Below are positions 10,226-58,135 of a DNA stretch of 64,000 nt, piece after piece. The translations under genes and the position numbers were made by a program. Below the pieces are notes generated by a model that had not been told where the DNA came from, did no database searches, and was given only the letters and a program-made list of their open reading frames with translations. The first letter of the stretch is position 1. Each line of letters starts with the position of its first letter. This DNA comes from Ignavibacteriota bacterium (GTDB taxonomy: Bacteria; Bacteroidota; Ignavibacteria; Kapaibacteriales; UBA2268), in the NCBI GenBank assembly GCA_016219595.1, contig JACRLY010000062.1:71639-135638 (forward strand). The letters run 5' to 3'.

Positions 10226-10338
10226 CCTCAATGGTTATTCCACCCACTGAAAGGTGGAAATTAATTGAAGAAAATTTTTGTTATTTTTGGATAAATATTA
10301 AAAAAATGTTTTTAAAAAATTATTTAAGGAGTTTTATT

Positions 10339-10713
10339 ATGAAAAAGCAATTATTATTAAATGCAGTATTATTTTTATTAACAGCATTCTTATTCACAAC
10401 TGTCGCTTCGGCACAGGAGCAGGACACTACAATCAAGGAAGCAAAGATTAAGACTTCAGCTGTCTGTGAGCATTGCAAAGCAAGAATAGAAAAAGCTGTC
10501 AACAAGCTCGACGGAATTGAATCTGCTAACTTAGACACAGAGACCAAAGTTCTGTCCGTGAAGTATCATTCTGATATATTAACGCTTGCAAGCATCAAAA
10601 CCGCAATTAACAAATCCGGTTACAATGCCGATGACATGGCAGCTGACAAAGAAGCATTCGAAAAACTTCCGAATTGCTGTAAAACCAACAAATGCGACCA
10701 TGAACATAAGTAA
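10339..10713 (+). CDS. Heavy-metal-associated (HMA) domain protein, secreted
   Basis: The start was re-set to the MKKQLLL Met because an AGGAG sits 8 nt upstream. It has a signal peptide, an HMA-like CxxC (SAVCEHCKARIEKAVNKLDGIESANLD...) and a C-terminal Cys/His cluster NCCKTNKCDHEHK. Confidence 0.65.
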   Translation: MKKQLLLNAVLFLLTAFLFTTVASAQEQDTTIKEAKIKTSAVCEHCKARIEKAVNKLDGIESANLDTETKVLSVKYHSDILTLASIKTAINKSGYNADDMAADKEAFEKLPNCCKTNKCDHEHK

Positions 10714-13490: not shown

Positions 13491-13517
13491 TGCATGAACT
13501 GCATATATTTCATTTTT

Positions 13518-14435
13518 TTAGATTATCAATACATCTTTAATAATGCTGACATTTTCCAAACAGTCATTTAAATATGTCTTTTGAAAAATTAATTCAACAG
13601 AATTATTAATTATATCATGTTTATATAATCCCAGTCTCGTAGCATAATAGAAATTGCCAGCTGTATCTTTAGTAATATCATAAATGAAGTAATAGATGTC
13701 CTTATAAAAAATATTAACTGAATCTTTTTCTAAGTTGATTAAATATATTGAACTATAAAGATAGCCATGATCAGATTTACCGAATATTGTATCTCCGTTT
13801 AAGTATATAAATCCGCTGATTTCGTCATCATATTCATTTTTTTCATAATAGATCTCATTCCAAGTCAATCCTTTATCTTTAGAAACCATTAAATGATATT
13901 TGTAATCTAAACCATACGATACACAAAAGAAATCACCATTATCTGTTTCAATAAAATCCCAAGTTTTGTTCGGTAATGATTCTTTCTTTAAAAATAAATT
14001 CCAATTATCGCCATTGTCAGATGATAAATAAATACTGCTGTCTAATATTGAATAGAGAATATTCTTTTTATAATTGTGAAAGTAATTATTAATATTTTTT
14101 GAATTAAATACTATTTCTTTCCAGGTTAAACCAAAATCATCAGAGCGGAATAGACCCGAATCGGTTGATGCTAGAACAGAGCCGTTTTTAAGAAGTTTCA
14201 GTTTATAAATTGAAGTATCTTTTTGAGCAAATTCAAGCAAATCCCAGGTTTGTCCTTTGTCGGTTGATTTGAATAAACCGTGCTCAGCCGCTATAAGTAT
14301 TGAGCCATCGGGCAATTCGACCATACTTTGTAATGGCTCATCGCCAACTAATCCCAGAGTTTTAAACTCCAGGTTTTTCGCAAAACATAAAGCAGTACAC
14401 GAAATCAGAATAACAAACAGTAAAATATTTCTCAT
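13518..14435 (-). CDS. BNR/Asp-box repeat protein (sialidase-like / PSII-stability-factor-like propeller), secreted
   Basis: 305 aa. It has a signal peptide and four S-x-D-x-G-x-T-W motifs (STDKGQTWD, SDDFGLTWKE, SSDNGDNWN, SKDKGLTWNE). Confidence 0.65.
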   Translation of the reverse strand: MRNILLFVILISCTALCFAKNLEFKTLGLVGDEPLQSMVELPDGSILIAAEHGLFKSTDKGQTWDLLEFAQKDTSIYKLKLLKNGSVLASTDSGLFRSDDFGLTWKEIVFNSKNINNYFHNYKKNILYSILDSSIYLSSDNGDNWNLFLKKESLPNKTWDFIETDNGDFFCVSYGLDYKYHLMVSKDKGLTWNEIYYEKNEYDDEISGFIYLNGDTIFGKSDHGYLYSSIYLINLEKDSVNIFYKDIYYFIYDITKDTAGNFYYATRLGLYKHDIINNSVELIFQKTYLNDCLENVSIIKDVLII

Positions 14436-24985: not shown

Positions 24986-25141
24986 TTATGCCTTCTTGCC
25001 TTCATCGCTGACTGTAAGTTTATGTCTGCCTTTTGCCCTGCGGCTTGCCAGAACCTTACGTCCGTTTTTTGTTGCCATCCTTGCCATGAAGCCATGAGCG
25101 TTCAATCTTTTTCTTCTGCTTGGCTGAAATGTCCTTTTCAT
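24986..25141 (-). CDS. rpmH: 50S ribosomal protein L34
   Basis: This short ORF is absent from the supplied track and was translated by hand: [51 protein letters not shown] (51 aa, TAA stop). The L34 signature MKRTFQPS...RRAKGR is present. Confidence 0.9.
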
Positions 25142-27472: not shown

Positions 27473-30400
27473 TCAATTTCCTAAAAATATTCCCACCGAT
27501 TTGTTTGCCCAATATAATATTGGTTCGTACCAGATTCCGAGTACAAGTGTTGGGATTACCAAAAGCAGAAGCATTACGACGCTCATAGGTGAAAATGAAA
27601 GTGGTTCATGTTCTTTGTCGAGTCCGCGGAGGAACATGTTTCTCACGACTTTGACATAATAGAACAATGACACAACAGAGTTCAGCACACCGACTACAGC
27701 CAGCCATATATAATTTGCATTGATGACTGCAATAAAGAGATACCATTTACCGATGAATCCCGCTGTAGGAGGTAATCCCGTTAGTGAAATCAGGAATATA
27801 ACCATGCACACTGCAAGAACAGGCGACCTGTAACCGATTCCTGTGTAATCATCGAGTTCTTCACTTCCGATTTTATTCGCGAAGAGCATTACAACATAGA
27901 AAGCACCGAGGTTCATAAACATATAAACCACGAAGTAAATCAGTATGGAAGCTACCCCGGCATCAGTCATCACAACTACACCCATAAGCATATACCCTGC
28001 ATGAGCGATGCTTGAATAAGCAAGCAGACGCTTCAGGTTAGTCTGCCAAACTGCAACAAGATTACCGAATGTCATAGTCAGAACAGACAGAATTGCAATA
28101 ATAAATTTCCAGTCAATGGTGCTGAGCAGTTTCCATGTATCAGCGGCAACAGGGCTCGTATGGTCGAAGAATGCAACTTTAAGAAATCTTATTAGTATTG
28201 CGAAACCCGCCGCTTTGGATGCAACCGAAAGCAGTGCAGTGATTGTTACCGGTGCACCTTCGTAAACATCAGGTGTCCAAAAATGGAAAGGAACTGCTGA
28301 AATTTTATATCCGATTCCTGCAATTATCATTATTCCAGAAATCAGTAGTGGAAACATTTCTGCTTTGCCATGTGCGATTGCATAGTTTATATCATATAAA
28401 TTTAAAGAGCCTGTCAATCCGAATAAAATCGAAATTCCGTACAGCATAATTCCTGAAGACACTGCTCCGAAAATCACATACTTCAGCGATGCTTCGCTTG
28501 ACCTTTTTATTTCTTTTGTATATCCGGCGAGTATGTATGAACTAATTGACATTGTCTCGATTGATAAGTAAATCATAATCAGGTTCGAGGCGCCCGAAAG
28601 TAAAAACATACCGAATGTCATGCCTGCAATCAGCGAAAAATATTCTCCGAGCCGTCTGTCTTTTTCATAAAGTTCTTTTGAAAAGAAAGACATCAGTACA
28701 ACGATGAAGCTCGATATGAGAATTACCCATTTGAAGAATTTCGCAAAAGGGTCAACAGCGAGCATCTTCGAAAATACGACGCTGTTCTGGTTTCCTGCAG
28801 TACAAAGAAATATTCCGGTTACGATAAATCCAATTAGTAAAATAATACCGGATATGTTTTTCGATTTTCTGAAAATTAAGTCAACTATCAGAGCAACCAG
28901 GAAAGTTGCAACCAGAGCCGTTTCCGGCTCAAGCATTGCATTCGGCTGAATGCCGAGATAAATAACAATCAATGCTAGAGGTGTCAAAGCAACTAATTCG
29001 ACTGCATTCAAATCATCGGTTTTGTATTTCTTGTGCGTTGGGTCCCAGGGTCCTGCCCATTTTTCGGGAACCTGTCCGAAGAAAACTTTTTGCAAAGTCC
29101 ACAGCATATATCCGGCTCCCAATACGATACCGGTTGCAGCAATCATTGTTAAAGTCGGATTATATTGGAATGCTCCGAGGAAAACAAGAATTTCACTGAC
29201 AAATCCGCTCAATCCCGGCAATCCGATAGCTGCCATGAATGATATTGTCATTAGTCCTGTGTATATCGGCATCTTGTTTGCCATTCCGCCGAAGTCATCT
29301 AATCCTCTTGTATGGCTTCTGTCGTAGAGAACTCCTACAACCATGAAGAGCATAGCAGTGATTGTACCATGGTTGAACATCTGGAGAATTGCTCCTTCCA
29401 TACCGGATGTATTCAATGCCGCCATTCCGAGTACAACAAATCCCATGTGGCTGACTGATGAATAGGCAATCAGCTTTTTGAAATCACGCTTACCTACCCT
29501 GTGCTGTCCCAGGGCACACAAGGCACCATATACAATACTGACTACACCCACCAATGCAATAAACCACTGGAAATATTTGACAGCATCCGGGAACATGGGC
29601 CAGCTTATTCTCATCATTCCGTAAGTACCCATTTTCAGAAGGACTCCAGCAAGAATCACGCTGATTGGTGTCGGTGCTTCCACATGTGCGTCTGGAAGCC
29701 ATGTATGGAATGGTACAGAGGGCACTTTGATTGCAAATCCCACGAATAGAGCCATGAACGCTATATACCGCCAGGTAGTATCAACTCCGAACAAGATTGA
29801 ATTTGGGTTGTATTTTGACGGGTCCATCATGTCGAGCATATTGAATGAACCGACTGCAAAGAATAATGCAATCATAACGAGAAGCATGAATACGCTTCCG
29901 AACAATGTATATAAGAAAAACTTTATAGCTGCATATTCTTTTCTCGGACCACCCCAGATACCAATCAGGAAGTACATAGGCAGTAGCATCAATTCCCAGA
30001 AAACATAGAAGAGGAAGAAATCGAGTGCCACAAAAACACCCATCATTCCTGCATCCAACAGGAGATACATTGCGAAATAACCCTTCAATGCTTTTGAAAC
30101 GCTGAACGATGAAAATGATGCCACAAAGCAAACGATAGCAGTAAGCAATACCATTGGGGCACTGATTCCGTCAATTCCGACGTAATAATCAATCCTGACA
30201 TTGCCAAGCAAAGGCAATCCGTAAAGATAAATCCATTTGAATTTATCTACGAATTGGAAACCGGACGGGTCATTAATACCCGCTTTGTGATAATTATAAT
30301 TAATATAAATCAGTATGGCTATTACCAACTGTAAAAATGTAAATATTATGGTCACCCATCTGAAAAGCAGTTTCGAAACTTCTTTACTACGTTCATCCTT

Positions 30401-30490
30401 TCCTGAAGGGATGAGTAATATCAATACCATTCCCAACAGCGGCAAGAAGGTAATCCATGTTAGAGGTCCCATGCCGAAAATCTGAAACAT
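27473..30490 (-). CDS. nuoM/nuoN: NADH-quinone oxidoreductase subunits M and N encoded as one continuous 1005-codon ORF (NuoM-NuoN fusion or lost stop)
   Basis: The N-terminal ~515 aa are NuoM-like ([28 protein letters not shown]). The C-terminal ~485 aa are NuoN-like ([21 protein letters not shown]...). The junction, ...[23 protein letters not shown]..., has no stop. Met519 (codon 28934-28936) could act as an internal NuoN start. Confidence 0.8.
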   Translation of the reverse strand: [1005 protein letters not shown]

Positions 30491-30542
30491 TAATCCTCCG
30501 GAAAAATATATTTATTCATAATAATTTTATCAATTTTTTTTT

Positions 30543-30674
30543 GAATAGCCACTACTTTTAAGTAGTGGATTAGTTCCACTACCAGTCAGGGATTTATCCC
30601 TTTAACTAAAAAAGTGACTAAAGTCAAAATTGTATCTTAAATCTTACACCACTATCTAAAGATAGTGGCTATTC
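30543..30674. repeat. MITE-like element, family B copy 1 (132 bp, ~12-bp terminal inverted repeats GAATAGCCACTA)
   Basis: The left end is gaatagccactacttttaagtagtgg and the right end is ccactatctaaagatagtggctattc. A homologous copy lies at 48106-48230. Confidence 0.7.
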
Positions 30675-30710
30675 ATTTTATCTTTAAAAGAACAATCCTA
30701 TACTTCTATT

Positions 30711-32960
30711 TCAAACAAAAAAGTAAATCAACAGCATCACACCAATCACTACAAAAACAAGGTATGTCTGCACTCTGCCTGTCTGGACTTTACGGAACAT
30801 AGCTCCGAAAAATCCGGTTACATTTGCCGACAGGTTAACAAAACCATCTATTACTATATTATCAAAATGTCCTATAAAATATGAAAATCCTCTGGTTACA
30901 AAAGCAGTCAGGTTAACCATTCCATCAATCAGGTACAGGTCAAACCATGCAAGCACTTTCGAGAATCCCACAGTTCCTGCTACAACAGTGGCATGATAAA
31001 TCTCATCGAAATACCATTTCCTGAATGAGAATTGGTGAAGTTTTGGAAATTGTTTTGCCATGTTGTCAGCATTGAAAATTTTAAACTGGTACACCATGAA
31101 TGAGAACAATATCCCGAATCCAGCAATTAAGATTGAAAGAATCATAGCAGGATTATGCGCATGGTGCATCTGTTCTTCGAATTTATTCAAATAGTGATGT
31201 CCACCACTGTGAGTTGTTCCATGCTTTGTATTCTGCGTCATTTCCGGTGTATGTGTACCCCCTGCATTTGAGGCGGGGGTCATAACATTTTCATTCTTGT
31301 GATGTCCGCAATCTCCCTTACATTCACCCTCTTTGCAACTATGCTTCATTGCCATTATGTAAGGGCTTTCCCCTTTTTCAGTAGGAGTAAGGAAATTGAA
31401 CTGGTATTTTGCCGGTACTGCCGTTTGCGGTACAGGTAAATTCTTAACAAACCAGCCCTTATTTGCATCAGTCGGATTCGGTGAATAGAAGAACCAGAAA
31501 GATAATACTGCAAGCAATACCAAAGGAAATACTATGACAAATTTATTTTCATGTGTGTTTTTAGCTATTTCGGTTTTATGCTCTCCGTGGAAAGCAACTA
31601 TTGTCAGACGGAACATATAAAACGCAGTCATACCCGCCGCTGTAAATCCGGCTATCGGGATAAACCAATGCCCGCTCAACTGGGCAAATGCGAGTGTTCC
31701 GGCAAGGATACCGTCTTTACTCAAAAATCCCGATGTCAAAGGTACACCGGACAATGCAAACGTGGCAAACAGGAATGTCATATATGTCAGAGGCATCGTC
31801 CTTCTCAATCCGCCCATATTATTAATATCCTGCGGGTCAGTGTGATGGTCATGGAATTTGTGCATCGAATGATGCATCGCATGAATCACTGAGCCGGAAG
31901 CAAGGAATAATGCTGCTTTGAACCAGGCATGCGTTACAAGATGGAAAAAGCCGGTTGTATAGGAACATGCACCCAAAGACATAATCATAAATCCCAACTG
32001 GCTGACAGTTGAGTAAGCAAGCACTCTCTTGAAGTCAACTTGTGTAATAGCAATCGTGGCTGACATGAATGCAGTGAATGCTCCTACATAAGCAATCGTA
32101 GTAAGTGCATCAGCAGAAAACATGGGGAATACCCTTGCCACGAGATAAACACCTGCAGCGACCATTGTCGCGGCGTGAATCAATGCACTCACTGGCGTTG
32201 GACCTTCCATAGCATCCGGCAGCCAAACGTGTAGTGGAAATTGAGCCGATTTGCCGATTGCACCGCAGAAAATAAATACACCTTACAGAGTAAGCCAGAA
32301 TCCACTATTGAACGGCAAATGACCGCCTGCTATTCCTGCAAAAATTTCATCGAAGAAAACAGTGTTATATGTCAAGAATAAAATCAGTATACCTGCGAAA
32401 AATCCGAAGTCGCCAATCCTGTTGACTAAAAATGCTTTCTTCCCTGCGTCGGATGCGGATTTCTTTTCGTACCAGAAGCCGATTAATAAATAAGAACTGA
32501 CACCGACAAGCTCCCAGAATATATACATAAATAAGAAGTTATTTGCAATTACTATTCCGAGCATAGAGAAAGTAAACAATCCAAGATATGCGAAGTAACG
32601 CGAATATCTTTTATCATCAGCCATATATTCTGTCGAAAACAAATGCACCAGGAAACTGATTAATGTAACGACAATCAGCATCATTGCAGCGAGGTTATCA
32701 ATTAAAATACCGACTTTAATATTCGTATTACCCAGGTTAAGCCAATTTATTTTGGTTTGAATAACATTCATATCGGCAAAAGTTGTCAACTTGGTATATA
32801 ATATGAAAACTGAAAGGAGTACATCAATACCGATAATAGTAACTGCCAGCCAACTACTCATTCTTCCCAGCCGCTTACCGAAGAAAATGTTAATCACAAA
32901 TCCGAACAGCGGGAACACTAATACAAATGCCGCAAGATATAATAATGTGTCAGGTGTCAT
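30711..32960 (-). pseudogene. nuoL: NADH-quinone oxidoreductase subunit L interrupted by an in-frame TAA (codon at 32283-32285); ORF pieces are 32283..32960 and 30711..32282
   Basis: The two ORFs are in the same frame. Hand translation across the gap gives ...[48 protein letters not shown]..., a contiguous and conserved NuoL sequence with a single stop. The downstream part also carries a His/Cys-rich insertion. Confidence 0.75.
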
Positions 32961-33200
32961 ATTTAACTATATATTTTATTCTTTAATATTTTCCTTTTTA
33001 ATAACCGTATCAGGAGTTACTACTGATACAACAAATATTTAATCCCTACGGGATATTTATTGTAGAGTTTATACATCATCTATAAACATATAATCACTAC
33101 GTGATAATTTAATATTCAATTCAAAGTACATTTCTTGTTTCAATTCAGCATTCAGAATTCAGCATTCAGAATTTTCAATTGTGAATTGTTAATTTTTTAT
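32961..33200. repeat. Intergenic repeat element, family A copy 1 (nuoK-nuoL spacer)
   Basis: It shares these modules with the copies at 34048-34319 and 37705-38069: tcaggagttact(a/c)ctga palindrome, atttaatccctacgggata, ...atataatcactac..., caaagtaca(a/t)ttct, ttcagcattcagaattcag. Confidence 0.7.
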
Positions 33201-33509
33201 TTATTCTTTCATTCTGTCTATTTCATCAACATTCACGTGCTTGTAATTCTGATATATATTCAGCACGATTGCCAGGGCAACGGCAGCTTCAGCAGCGGCA
33301 AGTATAATCACAAAAATCGCCGCAACGTGTCCTTCTATATTCATTCCGCCATATTTGGCGAATGCAATGAAATTTATATTAGCTGAATTCAATACAAGCT
33401 CAAGCCCCATCAAAACCATAATCGCATTCTTACGGGTTATGATACCGAAGATGCCCAGTCCGAAAAGGATTACGCTTAAAATCAAGTAATGTGTAAGTCC
33501 GATGCCCAT
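33201..33509 (-). CDS. nuoK: NADH-quinone oxidoreductase subunit K
   Basis: 102 aa with three TM helices and a typical NuoK pattern (GLELVLNSANINFIAF...AAAEAAVALAIVL). Confidence 0.88.
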   Translation of the reverse strand: MGIGLTHYLILSVILFGLGIFGIITRKNAIMVLMGLELVLNSANINFIAFAKYGGMNIEGHVAAIFVIILAAAEAAVALAIVLNIYQNYKHVNVDEIDRMKE

Positions 33510-33534
33510 TTTATTTCCTAAATATTTTTCATGT

Positions 33535-34047
33535 TTAATTAATATTTTTCTTTCTTCTTGCTATCATTGCTGCACCGATAATTGCAATCAATAAGAGCAC
33601 AGATGCTGCTTCGAATGCGAGAAGGTAATCAGTCAATAACATTCTGCCGATTGGTGAAATTGTGTCTTTAAGTGGTTCTGCATCTCTTATAAACCATTTT
33701 ACATTTGAGTACATCACACCAAGTGTTATAGTGAGTATTGCTACAGCTATACCTGTAATACCTAACTGCATTTTCCCTATCAATCCTGATTTAATGTCAA
33801 CTCCGGTGATTCTTGTAGTTAACATAACACCGAAAATGATTAATACAAGAATTCCGCCTATATAAATCATTATCTGTGTCAACGCAAGAAAATCTGCATT
33901 CAGAAGAACATAAATCGCTGCCACTCCGAAAAAAGTGAACAGCAGAGAAAATGCCGAATACATTATGTTCTTGGAAAACACTACTACCATTGCCGATGCT
34001 ACAATCAGCACGGCAAAGAAATAAAATATTATTGTGATTAAATCCAT
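33535..34047 (-). CDS. nuoJ: NADH-quinone oxidoreductase subunit J
   Basis: 170 aa, hydrophobic, NuoJ-like (SAMVVVFSKNIMYSAFSLLFTFFGVAAIYVLLNADFLA). Confidence 0.85.
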   Translation of the reverse strand: MDLITIIFYFFAVLIVASAMVVVFSKNIMYSAFSLLFTFFGVAAIYVLLNADFLALTQIMIYIGGILVLIIFGVMLTTRITGVDIKSGLIGKMQLGITGIAVAILTITLGVMYSNVKWFIRDAEPLKDTISPIGRMLLTDYLLAFEAASVLLLIAIIGAAMIARRKKNIN

Positions 34048-34319
34048 ATCAAATTTTTATATGTTATTTCAATTCATTTTCTATTTTTTTCCGTGTCAGG
34101 AGTTACTCCTGACACCTGTTTTTTTTGTAGGGGTTGAAAATTTTCAACCCCTACATATATTTTTAATATTAATTCTCTGTGTTCTTTGTGAATTTCTTTG
34201 TGACCTTTGTGGTAAAAAATTCTCATCAAACACAATATTTAATCCCTACGGGATAATTTAAATTCAAATCAAAGTACAATTCTTATTAATAATTCAGCAT
34301 TCAGAATTCAGAATTTTAA
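34048..34319. repeat. Intergenic repeat element, family A copy 2 (nuoI-nuoJ spacer)
   Basis: It contains gtgtcaggagttactcctgacac, gtaggggttgaaaattttcaacccctac, ctctgtgttctttgtgaatttctttgtgacctttgtgg, atttaatccctacgggata, caaagtacaattct and ttcagcattcagaattcag. Confidence 0.7.
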
Positions 34320-34937
34320 TTATCCATTATCAATTTTCAATTCGCCCGATTCCTGCTTAGGTGCTTCCGCTGCTTTTGCCGCTTCAGCCGCTTTCTTAGC
34401 CTCTGCTTCTTTCTTTGCTTTTTCTGCCTGGAAATTAGCCAGAAGTTCTTTCTTCTGCTGAATTTCTTCGTCAGTCATAGTCGAGAATTTATAGAACAGG
34501 TTATTCCTGTCATAAGCAGAATATTCAAATTCCGTTGTCATCTTTATTGCCTCTGTCGGACATGGTTCAATGCACAGTCCACAGAAACAGCATTTTGCAA
34601 AATCAAGTGTATAACTCGGCACCCATAAGCCGCGTTTTTCACCATTCTTCAATGGAGGTGCATCTCCGGGTACAACCTTCAGAGTTTGAACCGCAATGCA
34701 ATTCACAGGACAAGCCCTGGCACATCCGTTACAGCCGTTGCATAATTCCATGTCAACAAAAATCCTATTGCGGGCATTCATTGGCATCTTATCGCCGCTT
34801 GCTTTTTCAAGTGGATGCTTGTTCGGATATTGCACTGTAACATTTTTTGCAAATAAATGCATAAAGGTGATTTTCATACCGACAAGTACGGTATAAACAC
34901 CCAACCATATATTATTAAAGTACTTTTTCATTTTCAA
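34320..34937 (-). CDS. nuoI: NADH-quinone oxidoreductase subunit I (2x[4Fe-4S]) with a Lys/Ala/Glu-rich C-terminal tail
   Basis: 205 aa with CNGCNGCARACP and CCFCGLCIEPCP ferredoxin motifs. The tail is KAKKEAEAKKAAEAAKAAEAPKQE. Confidence 0.88.
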   Translation of the reverse strand: MKMKKYFNNIWLGVYTVLVGMKITFMHLFAKNVTVQYPNKHPLEKASGDKMPMNARNRIFVDMELCNGCNGCARACPVNCIAVQTLKVVPGDAPPLKNGEKRGLWVPSYTLDFAKCCFCGLCIEPCPTEAIKMTTEFEYSAYDRNNLFYKFSTMTDEEIQQKKELLANFQAEKAKKEAEAKKAAEAAKAAEAPKQESGELKIDNG

Positions 34938-34972
34938 TTTGCCATTTCTAAATTTGACAATTTCTCACTAAT

Positions 34973-36052
34973 CTATTTCAACATTACCCAAAGCCCTACT
35001 GCAAAGAAGCAGATAAAAGCTATTGGTGTCATTACTTTCCAGCTTACTCCCATCAATTGGTCAACCCTCAATCTCGGCAGTGTCCATCTCAGCCAAATCT
35101 GAACAAATACGAATACAAATGATTTGGATATAAACCAGAACACACCCCAGATCGGACCATTCATAAAATCACCGAAGGGAGAGTTCCAGCCCCCGAAGAA
35201 AAGAATTGACAGCAGTGCCGATACAACAAACATATTAGCATATTCGGCGAAGAAAAACATAGCGAATTTCATTCCGCTGTATTCTGTGTGATAACCGGCA
35301 ACGATTTCCGATTCTCCTTCTGGTATATCGAATGGCGTTCTGTTAGTTTCCGCCAATGAAGCAACAAGGTAAAGTAAAAACATTCCAAGTGTGAACGGAA
35401 TAACTAATAATTTCCAGATTGAACCGGGACCTCCAAATACATACCAGTTCCAGAACCAGCCCCCCTGGTTAGCATTTATTACCTGCAAGTTCATACTGCT
35501 TGCAAGTATAACTATACTCAAAATCACAATTGCTGCTGGTATTTCATAACTAATTATCTGGGCAACAGAACGCAATGCACCAAGAAGTGAATATTTGTTA
35601 TTCGATGCCCATCCGCCCATTACAAGTCCTATTACTGCAAGAGAACCCATGGCGAAAATATAAAACAATCCTAAGTTAATTCCTGCAGGCACAAAATTCG
35701 AACTGAACGGAATAACTGCAAATCCTGCGTAAGCCGCTGTGAACATCAGGAAGGGAGCCATATTAAACAAAGGTTTGTTTGCCGCATCAGGAGTAATGTC
35801 TTCCTTCTGCAATAGCTTCACAACTTCAGCAACAGGTTGTATTATTCCCCATGGACCTGTCCTCATCGGACCCAGTCTCTCTTGTATAAAAGCTGATATT
35901 TTCAATTCACCAAGAATTGCAACCAATGCATAAACAATCAAAAATACGAGTGGCAATGTTACAACTAATATCAGTGCAATCAGTTCACTGCTCGAGAGTT
36001 TTGCCACCCAATCATAAAATGTAAGTATTTGATGTTCCATTTTTCCGTTCAA
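34973..36052 (-). CDS. nuoH: NADH-quinone oxidoreductase subunit H
   Basis: 359 aa polytopic protein. The NuoH/ND1 signature ...ERLGPMRTGPWGIIQPVAEVVKLLQKED...AETNRTPFDIPEGESEIVAGYHTEYSG is present. Confidence 0.9.
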   Translation of the reverse strand: MNGKMEHQILTFYDWVAKLSSSELIALILVVTLPLVFLIVYALVAILGELKISAFIQERLGPMRTGPWGIIQPVAEVVKLLQKEDITPDAANKPLFNMAPFLMFTAAYAGFAVIPFSSNFVPAGINLGLFYIFAMGSLAVIGLVMGGWASNNKYSLLGALRSVAQIISYEIPAAIVILSIVILASSMNLQVINANQGGWFWNWYVFGGPGSIWKLLVIPFTLGMFLLYLVASLAETNRTPFDIPEGESEIVAGYHTEYSGMKFAMFFFAEYANMFVVSALLSILFFGGWNSPFGDFMNGPIWGVFWFISKSFVFVFVQIWLRWTLPRLRVDQLMGVSWKVMTPIAFICFFAVGLWVMLK

Positions 36053-36065
36053 TAAAAATTAAATA

Positions 36066-37217
36066 TTACCTGTCAACTTCTCCTAAAACAATATCAACGC
36101 TTCCGAGTATCATGATTAAATCAGCGAACAAATATCCCTTAGATATTTCAGGAAGGACACTCAGATTTACAAAACTTGTTCCCCGCGATTTGATTCTTTC
36201 CGGTTTATCCGTTCCGTTGCTGACTATATAAAATCCAAGTTCACCTTTGGGATTCTCTGCTTTCGTATAAATTTCACCTTTCGGAGGTCTTACTTTTTTC
36301 GGTAGTTTCTCCCTAACGTCTCCGTCCATCGGCATTTGTTCAATTGCCTGTTCGATTATTCGGCAGCTTTGCTCCATCTCATGGAAACGGACTATGTTTC
36401 TGTCGAAGCAATCGCCGACAGTTCCCACTTCACCGCGACCTGTTACTACATCAAAATCAAACCTGTCATATATAGAATAAGGTGCGTCTTTTCTCAAATC
36501 AAAAGCTAAACCTGAACCACGCACTACCGGACCACTGCATCCAAAATTTACAGCCACATCGGCAGGAAGTATTCCCACATTTGCAACTCTTTCGATGAAT
36601 ATTTTATTATATAATAGCAGGTCAGCGATTTCCTTATTTGTTTCTCTTACTTGTTTAACTATTTTCAGAACGTCTTCTTTAAATTCCTTATGTACATCTG
36701 CCGCAAGTCCTCCAACCCAGAAATAATTGTAAAGCAATCTTCCGCCGGAAGCTTTTTCGAAAATCGAAAGAATGAATTCCCTGTCGCGGAATAAATATAG
36801 AAATGGAGTAAATGCACCTGCATCGAGACCAAAGGTGGCAACAGCAATCTGGTGATTGGCAATCCTGTTCAATTCTGCCATGATTACCCTTATGTATTCC
36901 ACCTTTTCCGGCACTTCTATTTCCATCAGTTTTTCCATACCCATTACGTAGGGCCACTCATTGTTCATCGCAGATATGTAATCCATCCTGTCAATGTAAG
37001 GAATTACCTGCGGATATGTCATTTTCTCGCAATGTTTTTCGAAACACCTGTGCAGGTACCCGATATGAGGAATAACCTCTGTTACAATTTCTCCGTCAAG
37101 CTCGACTTCGAGTCGCAGCACACCATGTGTCGAAGGGTGCTGTGGACCAACATTCAGTCGCATCCTCTCGGAATCAATCTGACTATATTCAAACTCTACT
37201 TTCTTTGTTTCACTCAC
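36066..37217 (-). CDS. nuoD: NADH-quinone oxidoreductase subunit D
   Basis: 383 aa with the NuoD signature (MRLNVGPQHPSTHGVLRLEVELDGE...; ends ...LGEVDR). Confidence 0.9.
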   Translation of the reverse strand: MSETKKVEFEYSQIDSERMRLNVGPQHPSTHGVLRLEVELDGEIVTEVIPHIGYLHRCFEKHCEKMTYPQVIPYIDRMDYISAMNNEWPYVMGMEKLMEIEVPEKVEYIRVIMAELNRIANHQIAVATFGLDAGAFTPFLYLFRDREFILSIFEKASGGRLLYNYFWVGGLAADVHKEFKEDVLKIVKQVRETNKEIADLLLYNKIFIERVANVGILPADVAVNFGCSGPVVRGSGLAFDLRKDAPYSIYDRFDFDVVTGRGEVGTVGDCFDRNIVRFHEMEQSCRIIEQAIEQMPMDGDVREKLPKKVRPPKGEIYTKAENPKGELGFYIVSNGTDKPERIKSRGTSFVNLSVLPEISKGYLFADLIMILGSVDIVLGEVDR

Positions 37218-37324
37218 TATATTATACCTTAACTTTTTTATTTCTATTTTCTTCTTCTCTAATCATTTAAAATTTGATAATAAACATTCATTTAAAATTC
37301 AAAATTTAAAATATATAATTTTTT

Positions 37325-37704
37325 TTAATACGGCACTTTCATACCGTGATATTCATCCGGCTGAACATAATCTTTTCTCAATGGAAAACCTTCCCAGTCA
37401 TAAGGACAACAGAAGATACTACAGGATTATCCTTAGACAAAGTTACTTTCAATACAAATGAATGTTTCAATTTTACTGAATAAAGATGATATACAACTCC
37501 GAGATTCTCTTTGTAATCCATACCGCCCAACAGTGAAAGGTAATCAAAATCGAGGTCGGGTGTATCTCTCAGATATAAGCATATATCGAACAATTTCTCT
37601 GGATTCACCTGAACAAAAGGGTCAAAAAAAGGTTCCTGCTTAAATTCGATTATTGCATCGCCGAATTCCGCTTTCAATTTCTCATATATTTCCTGAGCCA
37701 ACAT
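37325..37704 (-). pseudogene. nuoC: NADH-quinone oxidoreductase subunit C with an internal deletion/frameshift
   Basis: The N-terminal 100 aa are NuoC-like (…VVYHLYSVKLKHSFVLKVTLSKDNPVVSSV) and stop at 37378. The conserved C-terminus YDWEGFPLRKDYVQPDEYHGMKVPY* is present in another frame at 37325-37385. The ~30-aa core (WxERExxDxFGI…GHPxLRRIL) between the two pieces is missing. Confidence 0.65.
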
Positions 37705-38069
37705 ATTTCTTTTAAATTTTAAATTATAAATTTTGAATTAACTGTGTCAGGAGTTACTCCTGATACCTTTATTGTTATGTAGTGGTTGAAAATTTTCAAC
37801 CCCTACATTTTATTTTCTATTATCAATTCTCTGTGTTCTTTGTGAATTTCTTTGTGCTCTTTGTGGTTAAAAAATTCTTATCAAACACAATATATAATCC
37901 CAAGGGGATAATCATTGTAGTTGAGATACATCTTCTATAGACATATAATCACTACATTATAAATATTTTTATTCAAAGTACAATTCTCTTTTTAATGGAT
38001 TCTGAACAAATCCTTCGACTACGCTCAGGATGACATTGTTCAGAATGACATTTTAGCTATTAGTAATTA
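37705..38069. repeat. Intergenic repeat element, family A copy 3 (nuoB-nuoC spacer)
   Basis: It contains ctgtgtcaggagttactcctgatacc, gtagtggttgaaaattttcaacccctac, ctctgtgttctttgtgaatttctttgtgctctttgtgg, ataatcccaaggggataat, catataatcactac and caaagtacaattctct. Confidence 0.7.
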
Positions 38070-38612
38070 TTAATTAGTAATTAGTAATTCTTTTTGTTCT
38101 TCTTCAGCAATCCTTTTCCTTTTATTGAAAATCGCCTGCTTATTTATCTTTTCCTGCAATCTCATCATACCCTCTTCCAATGCTTCAGGTCTTGGAGGAC
38201 ATCCCGGAACATAAACATCCACAGGAATAATCCGGTCAACACCCTTCAGCACATGATAACCGTGCTCCCAGTAAGGACCGCCGGAATTGGCACATGATCC
38301 CATAGAAATAACATACTTAGGTTCAGCCATCTGTTCGTATAGCTTCTTGATTCTTTCCGCCATTTTGAAAGTAACAGTTCCGGAAATGATAATGAAGTCT
38401 GCCTGGCGTGGCGAGGTACGTGGAATGCATCCGAATCGCATAAAATCGAAATGCGATGCATTCACTGCCATAAATTCGATTGCACAGCAAGCCAATCCAA
38501 ACTGGAGGTACCAGTCCGATTTGCTTCTGCCCCAATTTAATATGTCTTCAACTTTTCCTAATATTATTCCGCCGCCGTAGTATGGATCGTCTAATTTATT
38601 CAATAAACCCAT
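38070..38612 (-). CDS. nuoB: NADH-quinone oxidoreductase subunit B
   Basis: 180 aa with the NuoB signatures [11 protein letters not shown]…[11 protein letters not shown]…GCPPRPEAL. Confidence 0.9.
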
Positions 38613-38633
38613 TAATTCACCGTAAAATTATTA

Positions 38634-39107
38634 TTAACTCTTTTTCGTAACCACAAGGTCTTTCAGCGATGGTATGTATGGTCTCGGTTTTTCCCAGTTC
38701 AAATCGCCTTTTGCCCAAACATACGCCAGTCCCGCAAGTAAAATCACTACGAACACAACCATCTCAATAAATGCAAACCACAAAACCGTATCACCGATTC
38801 TGCTCATATCCCTGAATACGACTGCCCAGGGGAACAGGAAAACCACTTCCACATCAAACAACAAAAACACAAGAGCAATTACATAGAACCTGATATTGAA
38901 CTTAATCCACGGATTGCCAATCGGCTCTTCGCCGCATTCGTAAGTTGATTGTTTAACGGGATTGGGATGGTGGGGTCTTATGATTGCCGCTGTGATTAAG
39001 CCGGCGGCTACGAAAACAACACCCAGTATAAAAAATAGTAATATTATTCCAAATTCACTTAACATAAACACCTTCTTATCAATCATCAAAGTCGGTAAAT
39101 AAAACAT
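38634..39107 (-). CDS. nuoA: NADH-quinone oxidoreductase subunit A
   Basis: NuoA-like (…YECGEEPIGNPWIKFNIRFYVIALVFLLFDVEVVFLFPWAVVF). The true start is probably an internal Met (MLSEFG…) downstream of 39107. Confidence 0.85.
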   Translation of the reverse strand: MFYLPTLMIDKKVFMLSEFGIILLFFILGVVFVAAGLITAAIIRPHHPNPVKQSTYECGEEPIGNPWIKFNIRFYVIALVFLLFDVEVVFLFPWAVVFRDMSRIGDTVLWFAFIEMVVFVVILLAGLAYVWAKGDLNWEKPRPYIPSLKDLVVTKKS

Positions 39108-45481: not shown

Positions 45482-47083
45482 TTACATCATTTCAAAATCA
45501 ATAAATCCTTCTTTCACATCAACCATCGCATTTACAATCAACTCAACCAAACCGGAATAATAAAGTCCTGATTTGGCTTTAGCTCCATAAAAATCAAATA
45601 AATCGCGGAAGGCTCCTTTGCAATTTGAGCATGGAGCACACACATATTTTGGTGTTTCAGGACCGGGATTTTCATCTGAAAATGCGTTTAATACCTGCTC
45701 AAATTTCATACGGCTTGCCACCTGAATTCTCCAGTCGCTGAAATTATATCTGCTCATGACTGCAAATCCGCTTCCTCCGCCACAGCAGTAGTTTCTGTTG
45801 CCATGAGGCTCCATTTCGCGGAATTTCGGTGCAAGGTACCTTAACACTTTTCTTTGTGGTTCTATTACACCCATAGACCTTGCGAGGTTGCATGGGTCAT
45901 GCAATGTAACTGGGAACCAGTTTCTTTCGGGCTCAAATTTTAATTTTCCGCTGAATACAATATCGTTCATTATTGTCATAGCAGTTTCCCTTGGTACCGC
46001 TCCTGCAAATATACGGTCTGCAATCACACCCATTGCCTTGCTTTCATGACCACATTCACCCATTACGATTTTCTTTACTTTAAGTTTTTTGGCAATATCG
46101 AGATGCTTCATTGCAATTCTTGCTAACTGGACATCATCATAAAACAATCCGTAGTTGACACCATCATATCCAACCAAATCACTTGACATCGTCCATTTAA
46201 TCCCGGCTGCATCCAGAATTAAGGCAAAGGCTCCGGGATTTTCGGGCCAGGATAATATTTCACCCGAATTATGTATCAATAATACATCAGCTCCTTCTAC
46301 ATCCCATTTAGTTTCAACTTTAATGCCGGTTCTTTCACTCATATCCTCATCAATAAATTCAATATTATCTTTCACTACAAGTGAATTCATACCTGTACTG
46401 GAACCGACTTCGAGCTGCTGAACAGTGCCTTTCTCATGAAGTTCCTTTGGCGATAATCCCATTTCCATGCTGAACATTTTTCTAAGTTCATGAGTTATTA
46501 ATCCATTGTCAACTCCGATAGGGCAGCTTTGGGCACATCGTCTGCACAGTGTGCATCTGTAACTGAGTTCAAATAGTCTTGCTATCAATTTCCAGTTCAG
46601 TTCGATTCCGCCATTCTGGAAAGTATTATATAATTTGCTACCTTTTTTTACATACTTAAAATATAGTTTTCTCAATATCTCAGCCCTGTAGGTAGGTCTG
46701 TATATTTCATTTTCTCCGCTTCCTATGAAAATCGGACAATCCTGGCTGCATGTCTGGCAGCGGGCGCAGTATTCCATCGAAAGAGTCAATGGCTGAAGAA
46801 ATGCCCAGTTATTTTCTTTGCTGAATAGTTTGTTTAAACCCGAAATAAAAGATTCAATCAGCCTTTTCTCTTCTTCTTCCGATTCAGGTTTTTTCAGTCC
46901 GACAGCCATCACACCATCGAGGGACGCTTCGAATTTTGCTCTTATTTCACGAGATAGAGTCTTGAATCCCGGCTGTTCTTCCAATTTATCATAAGGAGGA
47001 GGCAGAGGATATAATTCTTCTAATTTGATTTCCGCCAACTGCTCTACAGGTGAGCTAATATCTTTGATTTTAACATTTTTCAT
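45482..47083 (-). CDS. HdrD/DsrK/GlpC-family iron-sulfur protein (2x[4Fe-4S] plus two CCG domains)
   Basis: 533 aa with CARCQTCSQDCP and CTLCRRCAQSCP ferredoxin motifs. CCG-domain cysteines are present (…HDPCNLARSMG…NYCCGGGSGFA…CAPCSNCKGA). It overlaps the upstream membrane subunit gene by 4 nt. Confidence 0.75.
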   Translation of the reverse strand: MKNVKIKDISSPVEQLAEIKLEELYPLPPPYDKLEEQPGFKTLSREIRAKFEASLDGVMAVGLKKPESEEEEKRLIESFISGLNKLFSKENNWAFLQPLTLSMEYCARCQTCSQDCPIFIGSGENEIYRPTYRAEILRKLYFKYVKKGSKLYNTFQNGGIELNWKLIARLFELSYRCTLCRRCAQSCPIGVDNGLITHELRKMFSMEMGLSPKELHEKGTVQQLEVGSSTGMNSLVVKDNIEFIDEDMSERTGIKVETKWDVEGADVLLIHNSGEILSWPENPGAFALILDAAGIKWTMSSDLVGYDGVNYGLFYDDVQLARIAMKHLDIAKKLKVKKIVMGECGHESKAMGVIADRIFAGAVPRETAMTIMNDIVFSGKLKFEPERNWFPVTLHDPCNLARSMGVIEPQRKVLRYLAPKFREMEPHGNRNYCCGGGSGFAVMSRYNFSDWRIQVASRMKFEQVLNAFSDENPGPETPKYVCAPCSNCKGAFRDLFDFYGAKAKSGLYYSGLVELIVNAMVDVKEGFIDFEMM

Positions 47084-48048
47084 TTTTTCACCTCTTTCGA
47101 AGGTGCTGCACTTGCTATAGCAATCCAGTTCCTGTTGCCGTCGGCTCCAATATGAGGCGCAGCCCAGGTTACTTTTTGATTCAACTGTTCACCAACTCTT
47201 TCTGCTATCTTACTGCCTGGAGCGTTTGGAGTGTCCTCCCATCTCACACTGTGGTACGTAAAGTATTTAGCAAAGAAATGTGTCATGTGTGTGAAGGGCA
47301 GATAAATAATAAAAATTAACGAAATTATTACATGTGCGTACCCGATTTTTGGAATTTGAACAGGCAGATTAATTGCAATTTCTTTTGAGAAAGTTATCAA
47401 TCCGAGGTAGTATCCCATCAGATTTGTTACCATGCCGGAATCAGCAATTCTCCACAACAGTGCTGTGAGATAAATTGTGCCGATTAATATAATATTAAAG
47501 TAATGACTTGCTGTGCTGTAAAGTACAAGTTTTCTATTCACTATTCTTGTAAATAATAACCTTATTGCTCCCAATATTCCAAGTATAGATGCAATCCAGA
47601 TTATTGCATCTATTACAATTCTGAATATTGACCAGAATGTTGCCCAGTTGGAGCTTGCACCGAAAACAAATGGTGATATGCCCGTTATTTGAAATAAAGT
47701 ACCGACAATAAGCAATGCGATATTCCCAATAAATAAATACAAAGCAAAATGGAATGGAAATGAACCTAACCACAATTCTTTATTATGCTCCCAGACTCCT
47801 TTAAGCAATAAAATTTCGGGAACCATTACTTTTAATTCACCAAGATGGTCTTTTTCTCTTTTTTTAGTCCACCAGTCAACTTCCTCGAGGATGGAGCCGC
47901 CATAGCTTGCCCGTCCTTTTTCATGTGGAACGGGGTATAGTTCCCATCTCAGGTGAACGGGGGAAGAAGCAATTTTCACAAACTTGTATATCACAACTGC
48001 AAGGAAAATCAGGACAGATAAATACGTAAAAATGAATAGCAAATACAT
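47080..48048 (-). CDS. NarI/HdrE/DsrM-like membrane di-heme cytochrome b subunit (putative)
   Basis: 322 aa with five or six TM helices and conserved His in the helices (HFALY…, HVII…, THMTHF). It is co-operonic with the HdrD-like gene. Confidence 0.55.
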   Translation of the reverse strand: MYLLFIFTYLSVLIFLAVVIYKFVKIASSPVHLRWELYPVPHEKGRASYGGSILEEVDWWTKKREKDHLGELKVMVPEILLLKGVWEHNKELWLGSFPFHFALYLFIGNIALLIVGTLFQITGISPFVFGASSNWATFWSIFRIVIDAIIWIASILGILGAIRLLFTRIVNRKLVLYSTASHYFNIILIGTIYLTALLWRIADSGMVTNLMGYYLGLITFSKEIAINLPVQIPKIGYAHVIISLIFIIYLPFTHMTHFFAKYFTYHSVRWEDTPNAPGSKIAERVGEQLNQKVTWAAPHIGADGNRNWIAIASAAPSKEVKK

Positions 48049-48105
48049 TAATATCTCCGGTTCAAAATTATTATATCAGATATTTTCAATTAACAAGAAT
48101 CCAAT

Positions 48106-48230
48106 GAATAGCCACCACTTTTAAGTGTGGAAATGTTATTTACACAATATTGGATTTATCCACTTAAATCAATGACTAAAGCCATAATCAGATTAATAAC
48201 TTTCCCACTATCTAATGATAGCGGCTATTC
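48106..48230. repeat. MITE-like element, family B copy 2
   Basis: gaatagccaccacttttaagtgtgg … ccactatctaatgatagcggctattc. It is homologous to 30543-30674 and sits between the dsrC-like gene and the dsrM-like gene. Confidence 0.7.
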
Positions 48231-48260
48231 ACAATCAATGCAAAAGTTTTAATTCAATTA

Positions 48261-48578
48261 TTATACACAGCCTGTCGGCTTAGCCAATCCGGCTACTTTA
48301 CAGGCACCTTTTGCAGGACCTGAAGGGAACAACTCGTATATCCTTTTCAATGGATAACCTGTTTCCTTGCAAAGCTTGCGAATCATCGGAGCAATACCGT
48401 ATTGCTTGAAATAATCCCTCAAATAATTGATAACCTTCCAATGGTCTTCTGTAATATCCAATACGTCTTCGGTGCTGGCAAGTGCTTTCGCAACTTCTTC
48501 ATTCCAATCCTCGGGATTCTCTATGAATCCGTCTTCATCAACATTAATCTTTACTGTTCCATATTCAAAAATGGGCAT
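48261..48578 (-). CDS. DsrC/TusE-family protein with both C-terminal arm cysteines (DsrC-like)
   Basis: 105 aa ending …GPAKGACKVAGLAKPTGCV. This is the DsrC-type flexible arm, with a penultimate Cys and a second Cys 11 residues upstream. TusE proteins lack the upstream Cys. Confidence 0.7.
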   Translation of the reverse strand: MPIFEYGTVKINVDEDGFIENPEDWNEEVAKALASTEDVLDITEDHWKVINYLRDYFKQYGIAPMIRKLCKETGYPLKRIYELFPSGPAKGACKVAGLAKPTGCV

Positions 48579-48634
48579 CTGAACCTCCCAAGCTATTTTA
48601 TTATGTTAATACAAATATTTGATTATGCTTTTTT

Positions 48635-50389
48635 TTAAAACATTAACAATTTATTATAAAAAATCACTTTTCCTGTTTCCGGATCTCTCGGTGCAATCTG
48701 CCCGTTCATCGGATTTCTCATTTCTATATACCCGCAGGGACATGATTCAGCACATTTATTACATCCTTTACATACATCCAATTTAAAAGTATATGGCTGA
48801 AACTTAGTTACCGGCTTGTGGATTGCCTGGTCCTGGCATAAACTCCAGCAGGTACCGCAATCGAAACAATGACCGCAGCTCATGCATCTCTTCGCTTCAT
48901 CAATTACCTGCTCCTCCGTGTAAGTTAAGCTTATCTCCTTTTCAAGTTCTTTCAGTCTTTCTTCAATTCCCAGTTTCAGGTTTTCATTTCTGAATTTCTC
49001 GGCATAATATGTCAGTACCATTTTGTCTTTAGTTACGACTTGCATTTCTTCTTCAACCGGTGCTTCAATGCCTCTGAACTGGCTATGTATTGTTTCTGCC
49101 GCTTTCCTTCCCTGGTATATTGCTATTGTTACTAATCCCAGGTCGAGATTATCTCCGCCTGCATAAACATTTTCTTCTTTCGTTTTGAATTTCTCATCAA
49201 CCTTAATCCAGTCCTTGCCTTCATGCAGTTTGTCCAAACCTTTGAACTCGGGTTCCTGGCTGATTGCTGAAATAATTGTTGTGCATTCGAATGTTGTTTC
49301 AGAATCTGGGATTGGAACAGGTCTGCGTCTTCCGGATGAATCCGGCTCACCGAGTTCCATCTTTTGGCACTTCATTGCAACTACCTTGTCGCCATCTTTT
49401 ATTAATTCAAGCGGAGCTTCGAGAAATTCAAATTTCACATCTTCTTCCTCTGCACCGACAATTTCTTCTTCGATTGCAGGCATTTCTGCCCTGGTTCTGC
49501 GGTAAACAATCCATACTTCCGCTCCCAGGCGGCGCGATACTCTCGCCGCATCTATTGCTGTGTCTCCGCCACCGACTACCAGCACTTTATTGCCGACATC
49601 AACATTTTGTCCTGAATTGATTTTATTCAAAAATTCAGTTCCGGTGAAAACATTCGGTGCTTCCTCGTTAGGTAAGCCGAGCAATTTGCCTTTGTGGGCG
49701 CCTATTCCTACGAATATTGCATTATAATCACTTTGCAATTGTTCATATGATATGTCTTTACCAATGATTGTATTCGTTTTTATTTCGACACCAAGTTTCT
49801 CTATTCTTCCTATTTCTTTATCGAGAACTGCGGCAGGCAATCTGTAATCGGGAATACCATACCTCAGCATACCCCCTGCTTTGCTGAATGCTTCGAACAC
49901 TGTCGGTTTGTATCCCCTTCTTGCAAGCTGGTAAGCACAGGACAGCCCTGCAGGTCCCGCACCGATTATAGCAATCTTCTCATTGTACTTTTCTTCTGTC
50001 AGCATCTCAAACGGAAGGTCATGCTCCAGCGCATAATCACCGATGAATCTTTCGACATTATTTATACCGGCAGGTCCTTCCTTGTATTGCCTGTTGCACT
50101 CACCTTCGCATGGATGAGGACAAACCCTTCCGCAGACTGCCGGAAAGGGATTCCTGTCTGCTATGATTCTGAATGACTTTCGGAATGATTCATCGTAAGT
50201 TCTGCCTGCGTCTTCAGTCTGTGCTATTGTTGTGAGTATTTCCCTGATTTTCGTTCCATTGGGGCACCCATGCATGCAGGGAGCAAGTTTTTCCAGGTAT
50301 TCCGGTCTCAGGGGTGAAGTCTCTACCGATGAACCGCCTGAATGGCTCCTGCCTCCTAATGGTTTCTTCTGTTTAACTAATAAAGCCAC
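48635..50389 (-). CDS. GltD-like NAD(P)H-dependent oxidoreductase with a C-terminal 2x[4Fe-4S] ferredoxin domain (DsrL/NfnB/SudA-like)
   Basis: 584 aa. It has N-terminal Fe-S cysteines (CMHGCPNG…CGRVCPHPCEGEC), FAD/NAD Rossmann motifs (IAIIGAGPAGLSCA; VLVVGGGDTAIDAA), and C-terminal CMSCGHCFDCGTC…CKGCNKCAESCPCG. Confidence 0.7.
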   Translation of the reverse strand: MALLVKQKKPLGGRSHSGGSSVETSPLRPEYLEKLAPCMHGCPNGTKIREILTTIAQTEDAGRTYDESFRKSFRIIADRNPFPAVCGRVCPHPCEGECNRQYKEGPAGINNVERFIGDYALEHDLPFEMLTEEKYNEKIAIIGAGPAGLSCAYQLARRGYKPTVFEAFSKAGGMLRYGIPDYRLPAAVLDKEIGRIEKLGVEIKTNTIIGKDISYEQLQSDYNAIFVGIGAHKGKLLGLPNEEAPNVFTGTEFLNKINSGQNVDVGNKVLVVGGGDTAIDAARVSRRLGAEVWIVYRRTRAEMPAIEEEIVGAEEEDVKFEFLEAPLELIKDGDKVVAMKCQKMELGEPDSSGRRRPVPIPDSETTFECTTIISAISQEPEFKGLDKLHEGKDWIKVDEKFKTKEENVYAGGDNLDLGLVTIAIYQGRKAAETIHSQFRGIEAPVEEEMQVVTKDKMVLTYYAEKFRNENLKLGIEERLKELEKEISLTYTEEQVIDEAKRCMSCGHCFDCGTCWSLCQDQAIHKPVTKFQPYTFKLDVCKGCNKCAESCPCGYIEMRNPMNGQIAPRDPETGKVIFYNKLLMF

Positions 50390-57162: not shown

Positions 57163-57186
57163 TCAATTAATAGATACTTTCACATA

Positions 57187-57223
57187 CTGCGTCAGGCTTA
57201 AGTGCTTGACGCAGTTTTTTTTT
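57187..57223 (+). terminator. Rho-independent terminator
   Basis: CTGCGTCAGG-cttaagtg-CTTGACGCAG followed by TTTTTTTTT. Confidence 0.8.
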
Positions 57224-58135
57224 ATTGTCTGAACTGTGATTTAGCTGATTAATCGGATTTCACAGATTTGAATTTTGGTTGTATGAAGCCAAAAAGGTGC
57301 AGATTTGTGCATCCGGAGCAGTTTTGACATCATTTTCATTTTTTGAATTTTAAATTCAACCTCACCGGAAAAGAAATTCTGAATTATGAATTCTGAATGC
57401 TGAATTGTGGTTATATTTAATTAATAATCCCTCTTGGTCTCCTTTTAATAAAGGGAGAAATTCCGTGAAACCCGGTAACGACTGGATTCAGCCCGACATT
57501 GTTTTGCAAAGAACGAGCGGGACAAAGTATAACCTCACCCTAAATCCCTCTCCGAAGGCGAGGGACTTTCCAAAACGGTATTCAAAGATATGGATCTGGG
57601 TGTGATATGTCAAGAAAACGGTTTTAAAATGGTTTTAAAATGGTTTTTAAAATATAGGCTGTAGACTGTAGGCTGTAGGGGGGAGAAGCAAATTTTAACA
57701 CAAAGAAGCACAAAGTGAAGACACGAAGGACGTAAGTTGTCTGAACCTGGATTAAACTGATTAATCGGATTTCGTTGATTTTTTTTATGAAGAAAGGCAA
57801 GTTTTAACACAAAGGACACGGAGGAAAGACACGAAGGACGCAGAGGAATTTTTAATTTTTAATTTAGAATTTTTAATGAATTTTTAATGTTTTAATTTTT
57901 AATTTATTTGGTGCACGCAGAGACGCGGAGCAGCGAAGGACGTAGAGGCACCACCCCTCGGTCCCCTCCTTAATTAAGGAGGGGAAGTTAAAGGGAGGTT
58001 TTTTTATAATACCCTCAACCCTGCCCTTCTCCCAGTGGGAGAAGGAAAAAAGGATATATGAAAATAATAATTGGGGAAAGTCTGTGCCGCGGATTAAAGA
58101 GAGAGTGGGAATGGAATGATAAATTAGAAATTTAT

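Follow-up and report, generated by a model that had tools for sequence, protein, structure and literature searches.

An 11-subunit NDH-1 (complex I) that lacks nuoEFG is known from the Chlorobi/Ignavibacteria. I. album (PMC3362086) and M. roseus (PMC3534657) carry two NDH-1 gene sets each, one of which is of this 11-gene type (IALB_1622-1632 and Mros2379-2369, respectively). The window, by which we mean the whole 64,000-nt stretch of an Ignavibacteriota MAG that was analyzed here, contains an operon that shares with these gene content, gene order, the absence of nuoEFG and the Ignavibacteriota lineage. This nuoABCDHIJKLMN operon (27473..39107, minus strand) was assigned with Pfam and NCBIfam and accounts for 18% of the window. 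Its gene order (A-B-C-D-H-I-J-K-L-M-N) is matched by synteny in three relatives (L001, L003 and L005). While the 11-gene operons of I. album and M. roseus are intact, that of the window has a truncated nuoC, a premature stop codon in nuoL and a fusion of nuoM with nuoN. Our preferred explanation, to which we assign a probability of about 0.7, is that the nuoL stop codon is a genuine, recent nonsense mutation in a complex I operon that has lost its function. The gene is most likely an ordinary pseudogene and not a signal of recoding.

The nuoL pseudogene (30711..32960, minus strand) consists of 750 codons, which include an internal and a terminal stop. Upon translation, a single internal stop is encountered, the TAA at codon 226 (32285..32283, minus strand) that had been reported in the first-pass annotation. 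The minus-strand context is GGC TTA CTC TG|TAA|GGT GTA TTT, with 32290..32281 reading CTCTG TAA GG, and the frame stays open for 523 codons after the TAA. The stop separates two ORFs, a 5' fragment of 225 aa that covers TM1-6 (32283..32960, minus strand) and a 3' fragment of 499 aa that begins at Met251 and is devoid of the conserved Lys237 (30711..32210, minus strand). The two had been described as NuoL-like, in the same frame and 72 nt apart, and all of this holds. Pfam assigns Proton_antipo_N and positions 1-72 of Proton_antipo_M to the 225-aa fragment, and positions 110-292 of Proton_antipo_M to the 499-aa fragment. The NuoL model NF005141 scores 222 bits for the first half and 335 bits for the second half, each being below the whole-protein cut-off of 556 bits only because the gene is split. 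The read-through protein aligns with the solved NuoL/Nqo12/NdhF chains. Both domains together with similarity over the full length, and the position between nuoK and nuoM, identify the gene as nuoL. Ahead of the C-terminal helices, the protein has a His/Cys-rich insertion of ~100 aa (…KHSCKEGECKGDCGHHKNEN…HGTTHSGGHHY…, window about 31100..31340, minus strand), which is common to the close relatives (749 aa versus 613 aa for E. coli NuoL).

The stop is located at the start of TM7, 11 codons ahead of the conserved Lys237 and 25 codons ahead of Met251. In established work on complex I, the TM7 lysine of NuoL is treated as part of the proton path and as essential. From the stop to Met251, there is no in-frame ATG, GTG or TTG, the only in-frame candidates being ATT, ATC and CTG. 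The first canonical restart is thus Met251 (ATG at 32210), past the TM7 lysine, so that Lys237 would be lost from a restarted NuoL. The truncation removes essential parts, and a plausible restart is lacking.

A search with the read-through NuoL retrieved only intact NuoL proteins, the nearest being P0001 (749 aa, 94% identity) and P0002 (748 aa, 90%); identity is 94.7% for P0244 (750 aa), a further member of the cluster. It had been proposed to compare nuoL with the closest relatives. Their NuoL proteins are all intact (748-750 aa, 88-95% amino acid identity) and have Ser at the site of the stop, i.e., the premature stop is found where close orthologs have a sense codon. In an alignment of 120 homologs, this column contains 98 Ala, 9 Ser, 8 Thr and 5 Met; the closest relatives have Ser, and a stop occurs in none of the 120. 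The aligned codon is TCA in L001/L002, L013 and L012 and TCG in L003 (TCA three times and TCG once), where L001/L002 stands for GCA_004322215.1 and an independent Logan assembly from identical reads. Because the nearest relatives have TCA and none has a stop, these codons indicate that the TAA is a lineage-specific change of one base, the ancestral TCA (Ser226) having undergone a single C>A transversion in the coding strand.

Several sequence collections were searched for other copies of the lesions. A 35-mer that spans the nuoL stop, in which the variable base was given as N, had no match in genome_contigs or metagenome_contigs, and the junction of the nuoM-nuoN deletion (see below) had none in metagenome_contigs. 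Exact matching of the NuoL fragments, YidC, the nuoM-nuoN fusion product and the protein P0121 led to no contig, and a search with dispersed repeats for additional contigs of the source MAG returned those of relatives only. The "repaired" NuoL (S226) and a repaired version of the PKD protein described below are both absent from a collection of 15 billion proteins. The JGI contig L012 had been considered as independent support for the nuoL stop, as its gene call begins at the equivalent of Met251. It was rejected because it represents a different and noisier organism (82% nucleotide identity, 30 gaps) which has TCA at the site. A TonB split seen in the MAG of a relative is only a gene-calling difference, L007 and L008 being 100% identical.

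The deposited annotation of the contig was inspected through its protein accessions. The assigned numbers include a 907-aa and a 305-aa PKD fragment (MBI5325488 and MBI5325489), YidC (MBI5325495), NuoJ (MBI5325504), the 108-aa NuoC (MBI5325508.1) and NuoB (MBI5325509). When the genes between deposited accessions are counted, no number is left for nuoL, and neither NuoL fragment (225 aa, 499 aa) is present in the protein collection. Thus, to judge from the accession numbering, nuoL was most likely deposited as a pseudogene.

It had been claimed that nuoL is otherwise intact. This is correct for nuoL itself but not for the operon, which has deletions in nuoC and in nuoM/nuoN. The nuoC remnant (37325..37704, minus strand) is a 108-aa ORF, compared to 158 aa in relatives. 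A 97-nt deletion at 37410|37409 shifts the frame and deprives the 30-kDa subunit of its conserved core, so that Pfam Complex1_30kDa matches with positions 1-73 of 124 only. The conserved C-terminus (DWEGFPLRKDY...) is now in another frame. This lesion is inactivating. The second deletion, at 28930|28929, comprises 161 nt (160 nt relative to L001). It has removed the 3' end of nuoM including the stop codon, the spacer between the genes and ~19 codons at the start of nuoN, which results in an in-frame nuoM-nuoN fusion ORF of 1005 aa (27473..30490, minus strand). In relatives, NuoM (545 aa) and NuoN (503 aa) are encoded by separate genes. M-N-like proteins of ~1000 aa are rare and occur in other lineages (e.g., P0283, 1014 aa, 95% coverage). 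Since such proteins exist and the fusion is in frame, it need not inactivate on its own, and this lesion may be tolerated. In the sequences of relatives, repeats that flank the junctions do not exceed about 3 nt for either deletion, and a misassembly by graph collapse is therefore unlikely.

The spacers between nuoK and nuoL (32974..33107), nuoI and nuoJ (34060..34257) and nuoB and nuoC (37711..37962) are occupied by palindromic repeat elements of ~200 nt. Their cores are GTCAGGAGTTACTCCTGA and GGTTGAAAATTTTCAACC, and relatives carry these elements in other nuo spacers. The core GTCAGGAGTTACTCCTGA was found in 87 stretches in genome_contigs, chiefly from a few related Ignavibacteria MAGs. The elements look like a dispersed REP/MITE-like family.

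For nine nuo genes that align in frame (this excludes nuoC, which was not aligned, and nuoN, the alignment of which is out of frame), a comparison of the window with L001 gives dN/dS of 0.012-0.061, with dS of about 0.6-2.2. Strong purifying selection has acted on the operon over almost the whole of its divergence. Given such low values versus the nearest relative, the damage, if real, is recent. With L003 as an outgroup, 85 amino acid replacements in the nuo genes are specific to the window and 66 to the sister lineage (p=0.14). Among the individual genes, nuoM has 19 versus 6 (p=0.015) and nuoL 15 versus 13. The ~19 extra replacements and the one nonsense change fit a short neutral period, although the excess is not significant overall. 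C:G>A:T changes are not in excess in the lineage of the window (68/668 versus 70/580), and a mutator or oxidative-damage spectrum was therefore rejected as a long-term feature.

Where they can be checked, the other genes of the window look full length, with one exception (see below). Other ORFs with full-length domain matches, as judged by Pfam coverage, include those for DnaG, YidC, YidD, CheW, DsrC, Pkinase and OmpA. Searches by tblastn with the ORFs of relatives, where relatives exist, revealed no stops or frameshifts in other genes of the window. No gene fragments are seen in the intergenic gaps, where rpmH, a response regulator and repeats are located. Same-frame ORF pairs at 17312, 15695 and 4487 were considered as split genes but are normal gene boundaries. 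Among the genes that can be checked by Pfam coverage or tblastn, three of the four lesions in the window fall into the nuo operon.

Some further features of the window are reported as such. A dsr-like gene set (45482..50389, minus strand) codes for a Fer4+CCG DsrK-like protein (45482..47083), a Nitrate_red_gam/DsrM-like membrane protein (47080..48048), a DsrC family protein (48261..48578) and a GltD/DsrL-like flavoprotein (48635..50389), all on the minus strand. This set suggests sulfur-linked electron transfer in the source Ignavibacteriota MAG. Two large noncoding gaps (57163..58135 and 61441..62085) contain internally repeated sequence, an example being a pair of similar copies (about 61494..61783) with the translation …RLYFIFDV(E/G)LRLWIPFQE….

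The fourth lesion is a second in-frame TAA (13518..13520, minus strand) in the gene for a T9SS PKD/BNR protein (10767..14435, minus strand). It splits the gene into two parts with a common frame, one coding for 305 aa with a signal peptide (13518..14435) and the other for 907 aa with the PKD domains and Por_Secre_tail (10767..13490); the frame after the TAA is open for 916 codons. The related proteins P0122 (1226 aa, 62% identity, 99% coverage) and P0123 (1236 aa) are continuous across both halves, with Ser in place of the stop. In the gene for P0122, the closest relative, the codon is TCA. In a calculation from the codon usage and the substitution spectrum of the window, 4.5% of the possible nonsense paths are TCA>TAA. 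Two random nonsense hits share any path with p of about 0.06, while the value for both being specifically TCA>TAA is 0.002 if that path is pre-specified. TCA is the commonest Ser codon in the window (2.05%). The occurrence of two TCA>TAA changes is a mild coincidence and, as a post hoc observation, not significant. The pair is compatible with two independent mutations, with a C>A error class or, as the least likely option, with an ochre suppressor tRNA-Ser.

TAA is in regular use as a terminator. It ends 25 of the 48 long ORFs of the window, with TGA and TAG ending 15 and 8, respectively. In the nuo operon, the TAA stops of nuoA, nuoB, nuoD, nuoJ and nuoK coincide exactly with the ends of the proteins of relatives, and that of nuoI is at most a few codons away. 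Two further examples, rpmH (stop codon at 24986..24988) and the HMA gene (10222..10713), had already been pointed out in the first-pass annotation, and both do end in TAA. A change of the genetic code was rejected because TAA terminates so many long ORFs, and does so at C-termini homologous to those of relatives; TAA has retained its function as a stop, which is at odds with stop codon reassignment. Immediately after 5 of 22 genuine TAA stops in the window there is a second in-frame stop, and the next stop follows TAA at a median of 3 codons, versus 8.5 for TGA. These close second stops probably reflect AT-rich spacers.

Signals that might cause the in-frame TAA codons to be bypassed were searched for in the window. 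Folds of 120 nt at these codons are no more stable than those of shuffled sequences (z = +0.81 for nuoL and -1.10 for the PKD gene). A scan of the window with Rfam returned only tRNA and no recoding family, and a recoding structure at the stops was rejected on both grounds. ARAGORN detected tRNA-Lys(CTT) only, so that the window has no suppressor tRNA. Programmed read-through, which had been listed as one of the options for nuoL, is disfavored by a stop that is not conserved in relatives, by the lack of a cis-acting signal or structure and by the absence of a suppressor tRNA from the window. The option of a true nonsense mutation is the favored one, given the TCA in the nearest relatives, the role of TAA as main terminator and the two further lesions in the operon.

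The alternatives differ in how they account for the two in-frame TAA codons. The TAA in nuoL might be a sequencing or consensus artefact, with the organism having TCA and an intact nuoL, which we consider unlikely. C>A/G>T changes are a known class of library artefact, and a position with low coverage in the MAG, or a G>T/C>A error from oxidative damage of Illumina libraries, could be the source. It fits such an origin that both in-frame TAA codons derive from TCA by C>A changes on one and the same strand, that the count of lineage-specific replacements in nuoL gives no further indication of decay, and that the base is not confirmed by any independent assembly, as the 35-mer without a match illustrates. 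However, a random substitution in these codons creates a stop in only ~4-5% of cases, so that two stops would imply roughly 40-50 errors per 64 kb, which far exceeds the consensus error rates of Illumina sequencing. The window contains no Ns, and the lineage is not enriched in C:G>A:T changes. The 97-nt and 161-nt deletions, being without flanking repeats, also speak against an artefact, as a de Bruijn assembler would have to find the junctions in the reads. Nevertheless, the finding of TCA>TAA in the PKD gene, which is unrelated to the nuo operon, hints at a cause that is shared by both sites rather than at decay specific to the operon, either the C>A artefact class or suppression.

Under suppression, an ochre suppressor tRNA-Ser (anticodon UUA) encoded elsewhere would read TAA as Ser at both sites, or the codons would be otherwise read through, and some full-length NuoL and PKD protein would continue to be produced. 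Ser suppressors arise easily, as the anticodon is not read by seryl-tRNA synthetase. The two TAA codons are exactly where relatives have Ser/TCA, for which the chance values given above apply, and long open frames follow both. Even so, we regard suppression as very improbable, since TAA is the dominant genuine stop and ends neighboring nuo genes at homologous C-termini, both in-frame stops are absent from all relatives, and the window provides neither such a tRNA nor any structure near either stop. Among the Ser codons, TCA is still the most frequent one, and nuoC is frameshifted regardless, so that a rescued NuoL would not restore the complex. One may picture a population with an ochre suppressor tRNA-Ser(UUA) in which some TCA codons have drifted to TAA while being still read as Ser at a useful level; that the TAA codons at 32283..32285 and 13518..13520 are footprints of this process has, in our view, only a slim chance of being true. 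Ser suppression would then amount to a partial recoding of TAA in a free-living bacterium whose main terminator is still TAA, and it would be of wider interest because TAA recoding is not known from bacteria. Hardly credible is the idea that NuoL works as two separately translated polypeptides, the 3' half being re-initiated past the stop. Both halves do keep long open frames and conserved sequence, but the protein is not split in any relative, the break is inside the conserved TM7 region, and with the first canonical start at Met251, the protein would lack 24 residues, among them the conserved TM7 Lys.

A genuine nonsense mutation in nuoL, the preferred reading, would have the following course. 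TCA (Ser226) would recently have been converted to TAA by one C>A transversion. Translation would end at codon 226, the 225-aa product having the first six helices only, and as the only canonical restart comes after the TM7 lysine, no functional NuoL would be expected. Because the same operon has the 97-nt deletion in nuoC and the 161-nt deletion across nuoM-nuoN, the nuoL stop would be one of several lesions that pile up under relaxed selection, beside the nuoC frameshift and the nuoM-nuoN fusion. Since a second NDH-1 set is present in cultured Ignavibacteria, the operon is probably dispensable, and a redundant complex I in the source genome is plausible by analogy to them. We infer that the lesions are present in the reads rather than being products of the assembly, that the complex is nonfunctional and that the source genome codes for a redundant enzyme.

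If the pseudogene reading is true, one Ignavibacteriota population has recently lost its 11-subunit complex I of the nuoEFG-less type. Such a loss would support the dispensability of this complex in organisms that have a second NDH-1 or other quinone reductases. It would also call for caution in metabolic reconstruction, as eleven nuo genes are present in the MAG and yet, under this reading, the complex cannot assemble.

Among known systems, recoding by suppressor tRNAs resembles the situation in the window in one respect. As with supD-type tRNA-Ser suppressors, or with the TAG and TGA recoding of uncultivated bacteria and phages, in-frame stops occur where relatives have a specific amino acid, here Ser in two cases. 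Unlike in those systems, the codon in the window is TAA, and TAA continues to be the main terminator; the window has no suppressor tRNA, the stops are not conserved and there are only two instances. From a typical decaying operon, the nuo operon of the window differs in that its decay is very recent, with dN/dS of 0.01-0.06 in the alignable genes and a nuoL that has no second lesion. The closest match is the ordinary bacterial pseudogene with an internal stop, of the type that is flagged by NCBI PGAP. It shares with nuoL a one-base nonsense change relative to intact orthologs, frameshift and deletion lesions in the neighborhood and a stop that is not conserved.
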